Of a stretch of DNA of 32,000 nucleotides, positions 12,154 to 21,278 are shown one piece after another. The notes beneath the pieces were generated by a model, which made no database searches, was not told the DNA's origin, and saw only the letters and a list, made by a program, of their open reading frames with translations. Source of the stretch: Phycisphaerae bacterium (lineage in GTDB: Bacteria > Planctomycetota > Phycisphaerae > UBA1845); NCBI GenBank assembly GCA_963666835.2, contig CAXXGO010000006.1, positions 2,511,443-2,543,442 on the forward strand, in the 5' to 3' direction. Each line of letters opens with the position of its first letter. Positions within the stretch are counted from its first letter, which is position 1. The translations under genes were made by a program, and so were the position numbers.

Positions 12154-12726
12154 TTAAAGATCATCCGCCACGTGCCAGTCGACGGCGTCGGTCTCGCACG
12201 TGATCGCGGCCACGTGGCTGTTGTGGAAGAAGTGCTCTACGGGCCAGGTCTGCCCTTTGTATTGCAGGGTCATGCGCGACGAGTTCGTGACCTCGACCAG
12301 GCGGCACGCGGAGAGCCCGGCGACCCCGGTTCCATTCGCCTTGAGGACGGCCTCCTTCGCCGTCCACAGGCGGAAGAAGGTCGGCCAGGATCGCCCCCGC
12401 AGCATATCCCATTCTTCCGGGGAAGCGGCGGCATCCATGATGGCTTCGTTACGCCGGGGGGCGACGTGCTCGATGTCGATGCCCACCGGGCGGTCGGCGA
12501 TTACCGCGGCCGCCCACAGACGCTTGTGCGTGATTGACCAATACCAGCCGTCTTGCGGAAGGGGGGCGCCGGCGGCGTTTTTCTTCCAGCCGTTCTGCGG
12601 TGCTCCGCAGAGCCGGGCGCATTCTCGCAAGGCCGCGCGCGCGCTGGCCTGTTGTTGTTTGACTTGGTCAGGGATGCGAGTGCCTTCGCGCTGGGGGATC
12701 GGGGTGAGTACCGGGCGCAGGATCAT
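12154..12726 (-). CDS. 4'-phosphopantetheinyl transferase (Sfp/AcpT type)
   Basis: GIDIEHV Mg-binding motif and [12 protein letters not shown] (W/FxxKEAxxK) motif. Its ATG overlaps the upstream stop codon (ATGA at 12723-12726). Confidence 0.85.
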
Positions 12727-13544
12727 GGCGATTCGGTCGGCCAGATGCCGGCGAGAGTGTGCTTGACGACGTCGGCGTCGAAGTAGTTCGTCTCCATACC
12801 GGCGTCCACCACAATACCCTGGGCATTGATGCCGCTAGATCGCTCGCTCAGCAGAAACAACGCCGTGTTGGCCACTTCGTCCGTATCCAATCCGCGCTTG
12901 CGCAGCGTGACGTGCTCCGCGTACATGTAGTTGTCGATATACCCGGGGATGCCGGCCGAGGCGCTGGTCTTGAGCAAGCCCGCCCGCACCCCGTTAAAAC
13001 GAACCTCGGAGAACCGACTGAACGACTTCGCCAGAAAGGCCAGTGACGAGTCCAACGCCGCCTTGGCCGGAGCCATATATCCGTAGCTCTCCACGGCCAT
13101 CCGCGTGGTCGAGATGGAAATGGTCACCACGCTGCCGCGGCGGTCGAGCAGATCTCGAAAGGCGTTGGCTACGGCAATGAGCGAGTAACAGCTTACCGAT
13201 ACGCATTGCAGGAAATCTTCGCGGCGCACCTCATGGAATTTGCCGGAAAACGATTCGTAGTTGGCGAACGCGATTGAGTGGACGATGCCGTCGATTTTCT
13301 GGTGCTTCCGGCCGACCGCTTCTGCCAAGGCGGCAATCTGTTCGTCCTGCTCGACGTCGCACACGTGGACCTCGCGGCCGGGCAGCAGCTTGCTTGACTC
13401 CTCTCGGCGGGTCTCGTTGCGGACCCCGTATACGACCCTGGCGCCTTCTTCTTCCAAGAGCCGGGCGACGCGATAGGCCACGCTGCGCTTGTTGGCCACG
13501 CCCAATACGAGGTATGTTTTGTCGGTCAGATTAAGATAACTCAC
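12723..13544 (-). CDS. Enoyl-ACP reductase, FabI-like SDR
   Basis: N-terminal [16 protein letters not shown] (FabI-type glycine motif with SIA-like triplet) and a Y-x6-K catalytic pattern ([12 protein letters not shown]). GTGA start/stop overlap with the upstream gene. Confidence 0.8.
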
Positions 13545-13987
13545 GCCGACGGTTCCTCCGCCTCAGCTTGCGTACAAGTGAACGTGACGCGAAGGGCCAA
13601 CTTATCTTCAACGGTAACCCTGCCCGTGAGAAAGAACGCGTTCTGCAGTTCGTCGTCGAGCGTCACCTCGACCCGGAGCATCTGCCCGGGACGTACGATC
13701 TGCCGAAAGCGGGCGTCGCGAATCCGCGTGAGGACCGGGACCCCGGCCGTGGGATCGTATCCGCCGAGTCGATGCGCGATCAGCAGGGCTCCAGCCTGAA
13801 AGCAGCACTCGCAGACCAAGACCCCCGGCATCACCGGGTGCCCGGGATAGTGCCCCGTGAAGAAATCGGCTTTCGGGTCGGCGAGCGTTGTCGTGACGAT
13901 GCGGTCGTCAGTGACTTCCACGATGTCGTCAACAAAAAGAAACGGAGGGCGGTGGGGGATCGAAGAAACGCTTAATATGTCACTCAT
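13541..13987 (-). CDS. 3-hydroxyacyl-ACP dehydratase, FabZ-like hotdog fold
   Basis: [32 protein letters not shown] (catalytic His and Glu context). 8-nt overlap with the upstream gene. Confidence 0.85.
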
Positions 13988-18600: not shown

Positions 18601-19590
18601 TCAATCACGTCTCAGCGAACGAATCAGCTTCGCCAAGCCCTCTGATGTCGAAACCCGTGGCTCATAACCGAAATCAGCCCTGGCCGCGGAAATATTAAAG
18701 TAGTGCGAATAGGCAAGCTGGGAGGCAAGGAATCGCGTCATGCGAGGTTCCCTTGATGGGCAAAATGCCCGGTGGATCAACTCAAACGCTGCTCCTAGGC
18801 GCCGGGCTGCGTTGTACGAAATCGTTCGTTCGACCGGCGGAATGCCCAGCTCCGCGAGGATGCCGTTTAGCCAGGGCCAGAGCTTCACCGGTTCGCCCTG
18901 GCTTATGAAGTAAGCCCGGCCCGCGCAAGCTGCTTTGGGGGTCAGAGCGTCCGCCGCCCGGAGGTGGGCCTCTGCGGCATTATCGATGAAGGTTATGTCG
19001 ACCAGGTTCTCGCCGTCTCCGACGATTCTAAGTTGGCCCCGGCGGGCGCGATCGATCACCCGCGGGATCAAATGAGGGTCGCCGGGACCCCAGATCAGGT
19101 GCGGACGAAGGGCGATTGTGCTCAGCGCGGCACTGTTGGCGGCCAGGACCATCCGCTCGGCCGCAGCTTTCGTTTCCGGATAGTCGGCCAGGTACTGTTG
19201 CGGGTAAGGCTGCGACTCGTCCACGCCGCAGAGGGGGCTTTCTCCGAACACGACACTGGGAGTACTCGTGTGGACTAGCCGGGATACTCCGGCGTTCTTG
19301 CACGCATCAATGACGTTTCGCGTGCCGACGACGTTGATGTCTTGGAATATCTTGCGCCGGCCCCAGATTCCGGGTATGGCGGCCACATGGAAGACCGTTT
19401 CCATTCCTTCGCAGGCCTGACGGATTGCCGTGGACTCCCGAATATCGGTTTGGATTGTCCGTATCCCGGCCTGCTCGTGATGGGGGTACGCCCGTCTCCC
19501 CAGCACGGTGACCTCGTCGCCCCGTTCTTTGAGCAGTTGGGCGATACGGCTGCCGAGAAAACCACCTCCGCCGGTGATCAGGGCCTTCAT
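18601..19590 (-). CDS. Extended SDR, NAD-dependent epimerase / 3-beta-hydroxysteroid dehydrogenase family (OleD-like)
   Basis: MKALITGGGGFLGSRIA Rossmann motif, catalytic YPETK (YxxxK), LRPHLIWGPGD, AYFISQGEP. ATG 19590 overlaps the upstream TGA (ATGA). The track ORF starts at 19611. Confidence 0.8.
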   Translation of the reverse strand: MKALITGGGGFLGSRIAQLLKERGDEVTVLGRRAYPHHEQAGIRTIQTDIRESTAIRQACEGMETVFHVAAIPGIWGRRKIFQDINVVGTRNVIDACKNAGVSRLVHTSTPSVVFGESPLCGVDESQPYPQQYLADYPETKAAAERMVLAANSAALSTIALRPHLIWGPGDPHLIPRVIDRARRGQLRIVGDGENLVDITFIDNAAEAHLRAADALTPKAACAGRAYFISQGEPVKLWPWLNGILAELGIPPVERTISYNAARRLGAAFELIHRAFCPSREPRMTRFLASQLAYSHYFNISAARADFGYEPRVSTSEGLAKLIRSLRRD

Positions 19591-21278
19591 GGGGCTTGCC
19601 TCTCTGCCCAATCCGCAAGTTGCTCGCGGTTGATCTTCGTGTTGTGACGGATGTCCACGGGAAGCGAGCGGTGCAAGAGCACTCGGGTGATACTACGCGT
19701 CAACTCGTTTCCGCGGGCCAGCTCCAGGAGTTCCTCTTGCAGCTTCCGTCCTCGGCCTCCCTTGAGATCAGTGGGCGATTTGGGTTCCACCACGATGACC
19801 GGGCTCTGTGCTCCGGGCGGTCCGACCCCTACCAGGGCTGATCGGGAAACCTGACGATGTTCGTTGAAGATTGCCTCACACGGTACCGTGAACATCGGGC
19901 CGTGTGACGTTTGTACTCGATGCCCCTTCCGGCCGCAGAACCAGATTCGCCCCTGTTTGTCGCGATAACCTAAGTCCCCGATCCGGTGCCAGATTCGTTC
20001 GCCGTCGCGGATCTTGGCCAGGGCGGTGGCATTCGGAAGCCCAAAGTACTCTTTGGTTACCACGGGGCCTGACACTACGATCTCGCCGATCTCGCCGTCG
20101 GGAACAAGTAGGTTACTAGACCATTCGGCGATCGGCTGGTCGGTTACGGTGATCACTCGCAGGTCGATCTCCGGCATCGTGGTTCCCACACAGGTTCCGG
20201 CTCCCGTCCGGGTCTTATCGGTGCAGCCTCCCAGGACCTCTCGACCGCTGATCGACGACACTGGGAGGGATTCGGTTGCTCCGTAGGGGGTGTGAACGTC
20301 TGCCTCGTCGCGGAGCATGTCGTGAAGCTGCCTGATGACGGGGTACGGCACGGGGGCTCCGGCAATCAGAATCCGGCGCAGGCTCGGTAGTCTTACGTTG
20401 TGATCCGTCCCATAGGCTGCCACCCTCCTCCAAAGTGCAGGGGATCCGAACGTGTTCGTCACCCGGTGGTCCAGGATCGGCCCGATGATCTTGGCAGGAT
20501 CAACCTTAGCCGGATGGGCGGGGTCCATGTCCGGGATCACGGTCGTCATGCCCATTGCGATGCTAAAGAGCCCGAAAAGCGGGAAGGTCGGCAGGTCGGT
20601 CTCTCCCGGCTCAATGCCGTAACGCTGCTGAATCTGCCGGACCTGTGCTCCGAACATGCCGTGCTCGTATACCACACCCTTCGCCGGGCCGGTGCTTCCT
20701 GAGGTGAACAGGATCGCGGCCGTCTCATCAGCCGCCGTATCGACCGTGGCGAAATCCGGGGCGGCGGTCCGAGCGAGTCCTGTCAGAGTCGGACCACCCC
20801 AAAACCAGCGACGCCCGACCGTGATTACGCAGCGGACCGATCGAAAGGGACCGGGTCGAAGCACCCGCATGGCGTGGGCCAAGGGTATCCCGATGAAGCC
20901 GTGAAGATCCACCCCGCGGATACACTCCATCATCCGCCCGATGCCCATGCCCGGGTCAATCAGCACCGGGACGGCACCCATCTTGAACAGCGCGAAGATC
21001 AGCCCCATGAAGTCGATCCCCGGCCGGACCATAACCAGAACCCGCATTCCGCGAGCCAGCCCGGCCGCGATCATTCCGTTGGCGAACCGGTTCGAGAGAG
21101 CCTCGAGTTCGGCGAACGTGATCGACCGGTAGACCGCGCGGCCGTTACCTTCGTACGACGACGTCACGACTACGGCGGGGTGATCCGGGACCTTCCGCGC
21201 CATTTGAGGAAGGTGCGACGCGATGTTAAACCGCTCCGGCGAATCGTGGGTGCTCGAATGATCGGGTGCCGTGGTCAA
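19587..21278 (-). CDS. AMP-dependent synthetase/ligase (ANL superfamily; OleC / fatty-acid-CoA-ligase-like)
   Basis: ILFTSGSTGPAKGVV (A3 core), PYGATE (A5), FALFKMGAVPVLIDPGMG. TTG start at 21278 with GAGGA 6 nt upstream. First gene of the operon. Confidence 0.85.
   Translation of the reverse strand: MTTAPDHSSTHDSPERFNIASHLPQMARKVPDHPAVVVTSSYEGNGRAVYRSITFAELEALSNRFANGMIAAGLARGMRVLVMVRPGIDFMGLIFALFKMGAVPVLIDPGMGIGRMMECIRGVDLHGFIGIPLAHAMRVLRPGPFRSVRCVITVGRRWFWGGPTLTGLARTAAPDFATVDTAADETAAILFTSGSTGPAKGVVYEHGMFGAQVRQIQQRYGIEPGETDLPTFPLFGLFSIAMGMTTVIPDMDPAHPAKVDPAKIIGPILDHRVTNTFGSPALWRRVAAYGTDHNVRLPSLRRILIAGAPVPYPVIRQLHDMLRDEADVHTPYGATESLPVSSISGREVLGGCTDKTRTGAGTCVGTTMPEIDLRVITVTDQPIAEWSSNLLVPDGEIGEIVVSGPVVTKEYFGLPNATALAKIRDGERIWHRIGDLGYRDKQGRIWFCGRKGHRVQTSHGPMFTVPCEAIFNEHRQVSRSALVGVGPPGAQSPVIVVEPKSPTDLKGGRGRKLQEELLELARGNELTRSITRVLLHRSLPVDIRHNTKINREQLADWAERQAP

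Follow-up and report, generated by a model that had tools for sequence, protein, structure and literature searches.

What could be made by an operon in which two Ole-type enzymes, a private fatty-acid synthase and two CrtI-like flavoenzymes are joined is the question raised by a locus from a Phycisphaerae bacterium (assembly GCA_963666835.2, contig CAXXGO010000006.1, positions 2,511,443 to 2,543,442; this whole stretch of 32,000 nucleotides is referred to here as the window). Nine tightly packed ORFs lie on the minus strand at 12154-21278 (Table 1). The identities of all nine, originally proposed from the sequence alone, were borne out by Pfam and NCBIfam profile searches, and inspection of motifs found the catalytic residues intact in every protein. 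Dozens of genomes, belonging to several phyla, repeat this gene order, and the arrangement is therefore far beyond chance. That the nine genes form a real operon of this composition is thus confirmed.

Table 1. Features of the locus in window positions; the nine operon genes are listed first, in gene order.
Feature	Position	Strand	Properties
OleC-like ANL-family adenylating enzyme; putative olefin beta-lactone synthetase	19587..21278	-	563 aa, TTG start
OleD-like extended SDR; putative 2-alkyl-3-oxoalkanoate reductase	18601..19590	-	329 aa from ATG 19590
FabF-like beta-ketoacyl-ACP synthase (KS)	17206..18444	-	412 aa; PF00109 and PF02801
Dedicated acyl carrier protein (ACP)	16897..17178	-	93 aa from ATG 17178; PF00550
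CrtI/CrtISO-family flavoenzyme A (CrtA)	15432..16817	-	461 aa from ATG 16817; PF01593 at 1.1e-18
CrtI/CrtISO-family flavoenzyme B (CrtB)	13980..15422	-	480 aa; PF01593 at 4.1e-15
FabZ-like 3-hydroxyacyl-ACP dehydratase	13541..13987	-	148 aa; PF07977 at 7.2e-20
FabI-like enoyl-ACP reductase	12723..13544	-	273 aa; PF13561 at 1.8e-59
Sfp/HetI-type 4'-phosphopantetheinyl transferase (PPTase)	12154..12726	-	190 aa; PF01648 at 2.7e-16 and 4PPT_N
Sigma-70-like promoter match	21331..21359	-	~50 nt upstream of OleC start; TCGACA-17-TATAGT, 10/12 matches; weak evidence
Terminator-like hairpin and T-run	12071..12085	-	~70 nt past PPTase stop; weak evidence
KS-like protein without catalytic Cys (CLF-like)	23710..24891	+	probable start near 23917; possible accessory

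The junctions, read from the sequence, consist of an ATGA overlap at 19590-19587 (OleC/OleD), gaps of 156 nt (OleD/KS) and 9 nt (CrtA/CrtB), an 8-nt overlap (CrtB/FabZ), a GTGA overlap (FabZ/FabI) and a further ATGA overlap (FabI/PPTase), all as first described. Two other spacings had to be revised: the longest ACP ORF starts at TTG 17196, but gene calling on the identical contig gives 93 aa, and the orthologues of CrtA measure 461 aa. With the ATG starts that called genes and homologue lengths favour for both, the KS-ACP gap grows from the 9 nt first given to ~27 nt, and the ACP-CrtA gap from about 25 to ~79 nt. The promoter match upstream of oleC is the sole one in the region, yet no more than shuffles give, and the number of terminator-like sites is likewise not above chance. 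FabG, a malonyl transferase (MAT), a thioesterase (TE), an acyltransferase and an exporter are all absent from the window, as had been noticed at the outset. An oxidative-stress gene island adjoins the operon and suggests a low-oxygen lifestyle. Membership of the Cys-less KS-like gene is uncertain: its N-terminal KS domain alone matches, it reads GPNSTIAGGVASG at the position of the active Cys, and it was not found at the corresponding position in other Phycisphaerae loci.

From the point of view of the single components, the synthase is complete in its catalytic motifs. The KS retains Cys/His/His (AACAAG, THATAT, GHAMGAAG), in agreement with the original prediction, and 9-11 orthologues representing seven lineages share these motifs; its score against fabF TIGR03150 is 313 bits, under the cutoff of 494. 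The ACP carries the DSM serine in a motif, RDQLDMDSMDFLDIVME, that is nearly invariant across phyla. The FabZ-like protein (fabZ TIGR01750, 99 bits) has the His...Glu motif, while the top NCBIfam matches of the FabI-like protein are all FabI models (142-194 bits, under their cutoffs) and its Y-x6-K motif, YGYMAPAK, is kept from phylum to phylum. HetI is the top NCBIfam match of the PPTase, in which GIDIE and WTAKEAVLK are present; in Phycisphaerae, Nitrospirota and Chloroflexota this gene accompanies the core. The two flavoenzymes are 24% identical to each other and both contain GxGxxG. The best NCBIfam matches of CrtA are carot_isom (84 bits) and crtI_fam (73 bits), both far under the cutoffs, and its nearest PDB sequences are 3KA7 and the CrtI structure 4DGK (E ~1e-10). 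CrtB, the most conserved of the nine proteins (66-81% identity across the related loci, 66-82% across phyla), scores 108 bits against carot_isom and 98 against CrtD, again under cutoffs; more than 8000 clusters match it, the best 120 at 76-82% identity. Its AF2 model (pLDDT 71, pTM 0.73) has as best Foldseek PDB match the carotenoid desaturase 4REP, with a TM of 0.6 and 17% identity. The two flavoenzymes probably set the unsaturation of an acyl chain.

The resemblance of the remaining two proteins to OleC and OleD, already pointed out in the original prediction, became the key clue. The adenylating enzyme (PF00501 at 1.6e-51; TSGSTGPAKG and YGATE present) reaches 712 bits with PRK09274 against a cutoff of 478, and matches the OleC equivalog models over their full length with 595 and 539 bits, below the cutoffs of 900 and 850. 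The reductase (3Beta_HSD at 1.9e-53; GGGGFLG and YPETK present) matches the OleD models, again full length, with 398 and 377 bits, below the cutoff of 580; its closest solved relative is sterol-4-alpha-carboxylate 3-dehydrogenase, 6JKG.

A comparison of 80 related genome loci defined a core, KS-ACP-CrtA-CrtB-(FabG)-FabZ-FabI-(PPT), shared at 45-82% identity by at least seven lineages in at least five phyla. It occurs in Phycisphaerae and other Planctomycetota, Nitrospirota, Chloroflexota, Verrucomicrobiota, Wallbacteria and one 'Deltaproteobacteria' MAG, and the cluster is thus not a peculiarity of PVC bacteria. Most core loci outside Phycisphaerae, but not those of Verrucomicrobiota, have a FabG-like SDR between CrtB and FabZ, so that the missing FabG, correctly noted for the window, is a lineage-specific trait. 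Where flanks are adequate for synteny counts, the order oleA-oleB-oleC-oleD-KS-ACP-CrtA-CrtB-FabG-FabZ-FabI...PPT is found in Nitrospirota (7/7), ...FabZ-FabI-oleA-oleB in Verrucomicrobiota (2/2; likewise in the cultured Oleiharenicola lentus) and oleA-KS-... in Chloroflexota (2/2), while oleC-oleD accompany the core in five of ten Phycisphaerae loci in addition to the window. These neighbouring oleA genes are genuine: they align full length with crystal structures of X. campestris OleA (E 1e-64), conserve Cys143 and Glu117, and score 414-437 bits with PRK09258 (cutoff 285); the JGI label for their relatives is 'acyl-CoA:acyl-CoA alkyltransferase'. The OleB candidates beside the core are haloalkane-dehalogenase-like alpha/beta hydrolases. 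The first view of the cluster is thereby extended, since other phyla have genuine oleA/oleB, or all of oleABCD, in physical linkage with the module, which makes the Ole pathway, and not ladderanes, the right frame. The link is frequent, not universal.

Recurrence in at least five phyla, often beside oleABCD, indicates that special acyl chains destined for long-chain hydrocarbons are the probable product of the module. On balance, gene content and synteny make it probable, if only by a little, that in this operon a secondary-lipid synthase of dissociated (type II) form feeds the head-to-head hydrocarbon pathway of the Ole enzymes. From the gene identities given above we infer a chemistry in which the Sfp-type PPTase would turn the private ACP into its holo form and the KS would add malonyl units to chains bound to the ACP; housekeeping FabD and FabG would supply malonyl loading and, in the Phycisphaerae lineage, keto-reduction. 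In cycles meant to stay saturated, FabZ would dehydrate and FabI reduce. ACP-bound enoyl or acyl intermediates would be the substrates of the paralogous CrtA and CrtB, which may keep, isomerise or introduce double bonds and so give the unsaturation pattern with no membrane O2-dependent desaturase. The special chain would then be handed to OleA for Claisen condensation to a 2-alkyl-3-ketoacid, which OleD would reduce with NADPH; OleC would close the beta-lactone at the expense of ATP, and OleB would decarboxylate it to a long-chain cis-olefin. This scheme fits the earlier guess that a long-chain acyl species, once desaturated, is turned into a beta-lactone or alkene. The 32-kb window contains neither oleA nor oleB, and neither occurs within ~10 kb in any of the 29 Phycisphaerae loci; both genes are therefore presumed to be elsewhere in the genome, and a complete pathway here is a presumption. 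Several observations count against the explanation: OleC and OleD score below the NCBI equivalog cutoffs, the nearest solved structures to the flavoenzymes are only 15-18% identical, and neither a thioesterase nor an acyl-ACP to CoA transfer step is present among the genes here. Characterised OleA enzymes take acyl-CoA. Moreover, the core is found with no adjacent ole gene in Wallbacteria, the 'Deltaproteobacteria' MAG and several Planctomycetota, and a CrtB orthologue occurs as a lone gene in Planctomycetaceae.

The scores of OleC and OleD below the equivalog cutoffs, together with the lack of nearby oleA and oleB, would also suit an unlikely alternative in which the OleC and OleD homologues of Phycisphaerae have been re-purposed and work without OleA and OleB. 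The OleD-like protein would be the ketoreductase of the module in place of FabG, which occurs in 0/29 Phycisphaerae loci against 11/29 with OleD, and it shows similarity to NAD_binding_4 (fatty-acyl reductase) at 1e-15. The OleC-like protein would lactonise a simple 3-hydroxyacyl product or, in a FAAL-like manner, charge the private ACP with a starter acid; a beta-lactone, a 1-alkene or a reduced head group would result, and no head-to-head olefin. In Nitrospirota, however, FabG and OleD both stand beside the same core, and the in-cluster OleC and OleD are 52-58% identical to those of the window (52-54% for OleC) with the same profile of scores (603 and 546 bits for the OleC of locus L067, inside a complete oleABCD; 381 bits for OleD against 398 in the window), which indicates a conserved function. 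According to published work, moreover, the ole genes of a genome often lie apart from one another (PMC3098273).

A little less probable again is an O2-independent synthase of unsaturated fatty acids for ordinary membrane lipids, analogous to FabA/FabB, FabM or FabX, with the flavoenzymes serving as enoyl-ACP isomerase and dehydrogenase and the ole genes using part of the output. For a 'secondary' pathway the proteins are very strongly conserved (KS 62-81% and FabI 54-79% identity across phyla, besides CrtB), several lineages have the core without ole genes, the top family matches of the flavoenzymes are to carotenoid isomerase and not desaturase, and the adjoining island points to life at low oxygen. 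A private ACP with its own Sfp-type PPTase is, however, typical of specialised pathways; KS, FabZ and FabI all fall well under the housekeeping equivalog cutoffs, and physical fusion of the module to ole genes recurs in four lineages.

A pigment-type polyene pathway (aryl polyene, flexirubin or xanthomonadin-like), with the flavoenzymes extending the conjugation, is very improbable: CrtI-type enzymes do make conjugated double bonds, an adenylating enzyme is present and Pfam matches of ApeI-like and ApeP-like type are on record for the FabZ-like protein, but the integral and conserved FabI is inconsistent with a polyene, the adenylating enzyme falls in the OleC clade, and the operon has no KS/CLF pair and no genes for an ApeH-type aryl ligase, methyltransferase, LolA/exporter or glycosyl/acyltransferase. 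Hardly credible is a cluster for ladderanes or other exotic polycyclic lipids, a likeness to anammox candidates that was named as the nearest in the original prediction and reduces to a loose analogy, because, although kuste3603-3608 have ACP, FabF, FabZ and a phytoene-desaturase-like gene in common with the operon (PMC4790861) and the Cys-less KS-like protein 2.4 kb away recalls the 'non-canonical FabF' genes of Kuenenia (PMC2649909), that protein is not conserved at its position, no radical-SAM/SAM-methylase family was detected among the larger window ORFs scanned, the published Kuenenia and Desulfotalea clusters lack the FabI present here and have other partners, and the module extends to Nitrospirota, Chloroflexota and Verrucomicrobiota, none of them anammox lineages.

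Neither the curated families nor the literature searched yielded a characterised pathway of this make-up, in keeping with the original prediction, which had recognised none, and no paper on such an architecture was found. The nearest idea is a proposal of 2009, unproven, of an anaerobic PUFA route based on FASII and phytoene-desaturase-like enzymes. Published lipids and clusters speak for the coupling of the synthase to the Ole pathway. Desulfotalea psychrophila produces C31:8 and C31:9 and, according to the authors, has no pfa-type genes, whereas three phytoene-dehydrogenase-like genes sit in its FASII clusters (PMC2649909); n-C31:9 is 'often present in planctomycetes' (PMC6995999). Tandem clusters of the order pfaDABC-oleABCD-pfaE are found in Geobacter bemidjiensis, a producer of C31:9 (PMC4882568; PMC3098273), and the role that pfaABCD and pfaE have beside oleABCD in Geobacter would here be filled by the core and its PPTase.

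The nine minus-strand open reading frames of the operon were confirmed at the positions originally predicted, and each of the nine family assignments was borne out by profile searches against Pfam and NCBIfam (see table). The predicted start/stop overlaps, three of 4 nt (ATGA, GTGA and ATGA) and one of 8 nt, are present on the sequence. The predicted gaps of 9 nt and 156 nt stand, but two others widen to about 27 nt and about 79 nt, because the ATG starts at 17178 for the acyl carrier protein (ACP) and at 16817 for CrtA, the first of the two CrtI/CrtISO-family flavoenzymes, are favoured by gene calls on an identical public contig and by the lengths of homologues. 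The OleC-like gene, the first of the operon, is preceded at about 50 nt by a sigma-70-like site, and a hairpin with a T-run follows the gene of the phosphopantetheinyl transferase (PPTase), the last one; since neither class of site exceeds the shuffled expectation in a promoter and terminator scan of the region, the case for a single transcript is carried entirely by gene packing and synteny. The Rfam scan of the whole window returned no RNA family.

Catalytic motifs are intact throughout the nine-gene set and all its proteins are single-domain according to Pfam, in agreement with the original view that the set differs from pfa-type polyunsaturated fatty acid (PUFA) synthases. OleC is a beta-lactone synthetase of the ANL superfamily and OleD an NADPH-dependent 2-alkyl-3-oxoalkanoate reductase, an extended SDR. 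The OleC-like protein of the window aligns end to end with both NCBIfam OleC equivalog models ('olefin beta-lactone synthetase'), scoring 595 and 539 bits where the cutoffs are 900 and 850, and the OleD-like protein carries the GxxGxxG and YxxxK motifs. The proteins of the elongation cycle keep their motifs across phyla, namely Cys-His-His in the ketosynthase (KS), the phosphopantetheine serine in the ACP, His/Glu in the dehydratase (DH) and Y-x6-K in the enoyl reductase (ER); since all of them score below the housekeeping equivalog cutoffs of NCBIfam, they are regarded as paralogous specialised copies. The helix-II region of the ACP and its orthologues, RDQL(D/E)(M/L)DSMDFLDI(V/M)ME, is nearly invariant from Phycisphaerae to Chloroflexota and Wallbacteria, a strictness unusual for a carrier protein, which suggests that many partner enzymes may dock on one surface.

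Features of the operon, its surroundings and related loci (positions without a locus handle refer to the window; L-numbered handles are related genome loci)
Feature	Position	Strand	Observation
Oxidative-stress island	9632-10753; farther upstream, L001:14670-17810	+ (window)	Beside the operon
ORF after PPTase	11136-11903	-	Low-complexity, 255 aa
FabZ, FabI, Sfp/HetI-type PPTase	final three genes of the operon	-	Pfam/NCBIfam
CrtB (Amino_oxidase/CrtI family)	13980-15422	-	Pfam/NCBIfam
CrtA (Amino_oxidase/CrtI family)	15432-16817	-	Pfam/NCBIfam
ACP	16897-17178	-	Pfam/NCBIfam
FabF-like KS	downstream of OleD-like, before ACP	-	Pfam/NCBIfam
OleD-like extended SDR	18601-19590	-	Both OleD models full-length, 398 / 377 bits, below the cutoff of 580
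OleC-like ANL adenylating enzyme	19587-21278	-	NCBIfam PRK09274, 712 bits (cutoff 478)
S13-family D-Ala-D-Ala carboxypeptidase (PBP4-like serine hydrolase)	21353-22981	+	Divergent from OleC-like
DUF1579 proteins (two)	23059-23691; 31323-31967	-	Planctomycete-type, unrelated to the operon
KS-like protein	23710-24891, probable start near 23917	+	Match confined to the N-terminal KS domain
DUF7901 protein	25203-29378	+	Giant, 1391 aa; planctomycete-type family, unrelated to the operon
TauE/SafE-family permease	L012:13294-14061; L025:13286-14074		Abuts or overlaps the PPTase stop
PIN-domain toxin-like gene	L013:11786-12205		Between CrtB and FabZ
Xylose-isomerase-like TIM-barrel gene (AP_endonuc_2)	L081:9097-9957; L082:6375-7232		Between the two flavoenzyme genes
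Class II aldolase and 1415-aa BcrAD/BadFG-type 'CoA enzyme activase' (DUF2229)	L054:169-5116; L042:181-5129; also L066		Precede oleA-core

The operon is real and strongly conserved. A scan at one genome per species found 562 relatives, and the best 80 loci were analysed by tblastn, with all the proteins of the window and proteins picked from the loci themselves as queries. In these 80 best loci the core KS-ACP-CrtA-CrtB-(FabG)-FabZ-FabI, usually with the PPTase near, recurs outside the window's genome, and the synteny check proposed with the original prediction found this core co-conserved well beyond its source and in several phyla: Phycisphaerae and unclassified Planctomycetota, Nitrospirota, Chloroflexota (Dehalococcoidia and Chloroflexia), Verrucomicrobiota (Opitutia), Wallbacteria and one MAG labelled 'Deltaproteobacteria'. 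The proteins have identical counterparts on an ENA metagenome contig and on an NCBI contig of 2.67 Mb, and the nearest relatives are Phycisphaerae MAGs. Across the groups identity to the window proteins is 66-81% for CrtB, 62-81% for KS, 54-79% for FabI and 45-65% for CrtA, with a roughly star-like pattern between phyla. More than 8000 sequence clusters match CrtB, the best 120 of them being 76-82% identical.

FabG and a malonyl transferase (FabD) had been listed as missing, and neither is encoded in the window. For the ketoreductase (KR), the absence holds for the window's cluster but is not a trait of the pathway: a FabG-like SDR of 246-254 aa lies between CrtB and FabZ in most core-bearing loci outside Phycisphaerae (Nitrospirota, Chloroflexota, Wallbacteria, the delta-labelled MAG and some Planctomycetota loci; Verrucomicrobiota excepted), whereas none is found in the cluster in 29 of 29 Phycisphaerae loci, which argues for a lineage-specific loss. 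None of the loci examined has a MAT beside the core; in L082, a Verrucomicrobiota locus, one is located about 10 kb off. Additional genes interrupt the core in places, with a TIM-barrel gene between the flavoenzymes in two Verrucomicrobiota loci and a PIN-domain gene in one Phycisphaera MAG, the latter indicating that the operon tolerates insertions.

Among the loci with enough flanking DNA, the core is repeatedly joined to ole genes. All seven Nitrospirota loci read oleA-like, alpha/beta-hydrolase, OleC, OleD, KS, ACP, CrtA, CrtB, FabG, FabZ, FabI and, farther on, PPTase; in both Verrucomicrobiota loci, and likewise in the cultured Oleiharenicola lentus, FabZ and FabI are followed by oleA-like and alpha/beta-hydrolase genes; in both Chloroflexota loci an oleA-like gene precedes KS; and OleC-OleD stand upstream of the core in 5 of 10 Phycisphaerae loci as well as in the window. 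A divergent SDR in Oleiharenicola was considered as OleD and rejected, the protein being GalE. OleA is a FabH-like thiolase with catalytic Cys143 and a trans-acting Glu117, and OleB is a haloalkane-dehalogenase-like alpha/beta hydrolase acting as beta-lactone decarboxylase. The oleA-like proteins of Nitrospirota, Verrucomicrobiota and Chloroflexota align along their entire length with crystal structures of X. campestris OleA (3ROW, 4KU2 and others; E 1e-64), keep Cys143 and the OleA-specific Glu117, pass NCBIfam PRK09258 at 414-437 bits (cutoff 285) and belong with relatives named 'acyl-CoA:acyl-CoA alkyltransferase' by JGI; the hydrolases adjoining oleA in Nitrospirota and Verrucomicrobiota match haloalkane dehalogenase models at 159-165 bits. 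Within the complete Nitrospirota oleABCD, OleC scores 603 and 546 bits (595 and 539 in the window) and OleD 381 bits (398 in the window), the two proteins being 52-58% identical to those of the window. The same score profile inside a full oleABCD suggests that the sub-cutoff scores of the window probably reflect distance from the Xanthomonas/Shewanella seeds and not membership of another family.

No oleA turned up in the window of 32 kb, nor within about 10 kb in 29 Phycisphaerae loci, and no oleB in the window or near any Phycisphaerae copy. The best 120 matches to a four-phylum OleA profile are of the Nitrospirota, Chloroflexota, NC10 and Opitutaceae types; none of those listed is labelled Phycisphaerae, but since most carry no organism label this does not speak for an absence from that group. 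In Chloroflexota (L054, L042 and L066) a class II aldolase and a large CoA enzyme activase stand before the oleA-core and a DUF362 protein after it, with no oleB, oleC or oleD nearby; OleA alone would give ketones there.

Several neighbouring genes deserve mention. The S13 carboxypeptidase divergent from OleC-like is also found beside OleC, at 50-58% identity, in six other loci (L002, L006, L007, L012, L014 and L025), four labelled Phycisphaerae and two from related Planctomycetota or unclassified MAGs; in L001, an otherwise identical ENA contig, two ORFs stand in place of the one gene, probably through a 1-nt indel. Its position beside a beta-lactone synthetase homologue, with OleB not nearby, may be a coincidence, or the hydrolase may be a self-resistance target or a lactone-processing enzyme. 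In the KS-like protein encoded on the plus strand the catalytic Cys is replaced (GPNSTIAGGVASG); to judge from its sequence it would be a chain-length-factor-like 'non-canonical FabF', reminiscent of those of Kuenenia and Rhodopirellula, and it is a possible accessory of the operon, with no such gene found at that position in other Phycisphaerae loci. The ORF following the PPTase matches no family, has its only homologue on the identical contig, and was set aside as probably no real tenth gene. Downstream of the PPTase at least 12 related loci, mostly Phycisphaerae, carry a TauE/SafE-family permease of 255-262 aa, located immediately at the PPTase stop in the two loci where the gene ends were read; it has no counterpart in the window and could be the pathway's missing transporter in these relatives. 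The oxidative-stress island comprises two rubrerythrins, a rubredoxin-like protein, an AhpC/TSA peroxiredoxin and a Fur-family regulator; such a set suggests that the host is anaerobic or microaerophilic. The operon is flanked by DUF1579 and other planctomycete-type families.

CrtA and CrtB are paralogues sharing 24% identity, with an FAD-binding GxGxxG N-terminus and matches to PF01593. The curated NCBIfam models that match them best are carotenoid isomerase CrtISO, CrtD and crtI_fam, with scores of 73-108 bits where the cutoffs lie at 238-587; TIGR02734 crtI_fam in particular gives 73 and 86 bits, below its 238-bit threshold. The nearest solved sequences are CrtI 4DGK, 4REP and 3KA7 (E 1e-6 to 1e-10). 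An AlphaFold model of CrtB, of moderate quality (pLDDT 71, pTM 0.73), retrieved the same three structures from the PDB with Foldseek at E 1e-15 to 1e-19, the top match being 4REP (TM about 0.6, 17% identity), and identifies only a generic CrtI/amine-oxidase fold. The pair shares the FAD-binding N-terminus and the overall fold with the CrtI/CrtISO/CrtD family (PDB 4DGK, 4REP) but is only 15-18% identical to it and stands in a fatty-acyl-ACP rather than an isoprenoid context: no carotenoid genes lie near the flavoenzymes in the window, the surroundings being ACP/FAS genes. No characterised close relative was found.

On the best-supported reading the operon would be the type II parallel to the pfa-ole arrangement. 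Gene identities, intact active sites and multi-phylum synteny with genuine ole genes have been established; which way the flux runs, what the flavoenzymes do and what is produced are inferred. The private ACP would be activated by the operon's own PPTase; the chain would be elongated and processed by the dedicated KS, (KR), DH and ER; the two flavoenzymes would decide where double bonds stay or arise; and the product would be handed to the Ole enzymes, of which OleC and OleD are encoded in the operon, while OleA and OleB, adjacent in other phyla, are presumed to be encoded elsewhere in the window's genome. By analogy, and speculatively, the two paralogous CrtISO-like enzymes might correspond to the double-bond-retaining steps of PUFA synthases (trans-2 to cis-3 and trans-2 to cis-2 isomerisation). 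A more specific version is possible but rather doubtful: the seven-gene core (KS, ACP, two flavoenzymes, KR, DH, ER) would be a type II route, independent of oxygen and so far unrecognised, to polyunsaturated acyl chains, in which the flavoenzymes, as ACP-dependent enoyl isomerases/dehydrogenases, would replace the FabA-type domains of Pfa and which, with the Ole enzymes, would make the C31:8/C31:9-type hydrocarbons of many planctomycetes and of pfa-less anaerobes such as Desulfotalea.

The Ole reading has weak points, namely that the cluster holds no enzyme for an ACP-to-CoA hand-off, that no oleA or oleB lies near the Phycisphaerae copies and that some lineages have core-only loci. The second is what would be seen if OleC and OleD were used independently of OleA in Phycisphaerae, a less likely rival that has to be set beside the complete oleABCD run adjoining the core in Nitrospirota. 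The third is compatible with the likewise less likely reading of the module as a general anaerobic unsaturated fatty acid (UFA) synthase: in Wallbacteria, the delta-labelled MAG and some Planctomycetota the core has unrelated neighbours and no adjacent ole genes, and the CrtB orthologue of Planctomycetaceae stands by itself; the ole linkage in other phyla points the other way, and no alternative conserved partner was found around the lone CrtB of Planctomycetaceae or the core-only loci of Wallbacteria and the delta-labelled MAG. The likeness to ladderane candidates, drawn in the original prediction, is disfavoured by the features tested and was rejected, as no radical-SAM family occurs among the larger window ORFs scanned, the relatives are Phycisphaerae and the core is also present in non-planctomycete phyla. 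Aryl-polyene clusters, which have a KS/CLF pair, two ACPs, an aryl-acid ligase, LolA/exporter and acyl/glycosyltransferases and no enoyl reductase, differ from the set as originally stated, and this reading too was rejected on the features tested, FabI being integral, the ligase OleC-type and the accessory genes absent.

If the type II counterpart of pfa-ole is the correct reading, a very widespread CrtI/CrtISO-like subfamily (more than 8000 sequence clusters, at least five phyla) would act on fatty acyl-ACP and not on isoprenoids, a new chemistry for the family, and its members would be candidates for an O2-independent means of placing double bonds in fatty chains. It would also identify the source of special acyl precursors in some Ole-pathway bacteria devoid of a Pfa synthase, a question of supply standing since C31:8/C31:9 were reported in pfa-less Desulfotalea and many planctomycetes. 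The polyunsaturated version would settle the 2009 hypothesis of a 'novel anaerobic PUFA pathway' and provide a compact gene set for hydrocarbon engineering, and even a plain UFA synthase would represent a new way of making UFAs anaerobically. Small, made up of genes for single-domain proteins and found in at least one organism in culture (Oleiharenicola lentus), the cluster lends itself to a direct test of the hypothesis and might serve hydrocarbon bio-production. The interest lies in an uncharacterised, widespread flavoenzyme pair in a fatty-acyl-ACP context and in Ole supply in pfa-less bacteria.

As regards known systems, Pfa-type PUFA synthases consist of the large multidomain proteins PfaA/B/C/D, which include tandem ACPs and FabA-like DH domains. 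Of the window's proteins the KS alone matches the PfaA model (91 bits), and the sole shared Pfa-type part is the accessory Sfp/HetI-type PPTase. Linkage of pfa and ole genes is described in the pfaDABC-oleABCD-pfaE tandem of Geobacter bemidjiensis, a maker of C31:9 (PMC4882568), and in the 'Type I' pfa-like clusters of deltaproteobacteria and Gemmata (PMC3098273). Such tandems (Geobacter bemidjiensis; Shewanella/Photobacterium; C31:9 hentriacontanonaene) resemble the operon in their logic, setting a synthase dedicated to secondary lipids, together with an Sfp-type PPTase of its own, next to ole genes (PMC4882568, PMC3098273, PMC6463001) and in the common inventory of KS, ACP, KR, DH, ER and PPTase. 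Unlike them, the window synthase is dissociated (type II) instead of built from giant Pfa proteins, and two CrtI/CrtISO-family FAD enzymes are present in place of FabA-type DH/isomerase domains, MAT and CLF.

The nearest published idea concerns FASII clusters with 'phytoene dehydrogenase-like' genes, which were noted in Kuenenia, Desulfotalea, Geobacter and Pelobacter and put forward, without proof, as a new anaerobic way of making PUFAs (Rattray et al., 2009, PMC2649909). Desulfotalea psychrophila makes C31:8 and C31:9 hydrocarbons and was reported to lack pfa-type genes and to have three such flavoprotein genes, two of them adjacent (DP2405/DP2406) (PMC2649909); the Kuenenia homologues showed no phytoene desaturation in vivo (Javidpour et al., 2016, PMC4790861), and n-C31:9 is 'often present in planctomycetes' (PMC6995999). 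The clusters of Kuenenia stuttgartiensis and D. psychrophila share with the window ACP, FabF, FabZ and amine-oxidase/CrtI-like flavoproteins, and also contain FabG, but they carry radical-SAM, SAM-methylase, phenylacetyl-CoA-ligase-like and glycosyltransferase genes and no FabI; no link to ole was drawn in that proposal, which gene content sets apart from the window.

The oleABCD clusters of Xanthomonas, Shewanella and Micrococcus, studied by the Wackett laboratory, offer the closest parallel for the first two genes, whose homologues are full-length, in the same order and translationally coupled through ATGA, and whose Nitrospirota orthologues form part of a complete oleA-oleB-oleC-oleD run directly upstream of the core. 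The product of oleABCD is a long-chain cis-olefin made from two fatty acyl chains. The window differs in having no oleA or oleB and in OleC/OleD scores below the curated equivalog cutoffs, and no ole cluster in the searchable literature has a private KS/ACP/DH/ER set with two CrtI-like flavoenzymes and a PPTase, nor was any description found there of ole genes joined to a type II FAS with two CrtI-like genes. As far as curated families and searchable literature show, the combination is, as first supposed, no characterised pathway and no known product-assigned cluster; it is best classed as a variant on the Ole/secondary-lipid theme rather than as something categorically new.
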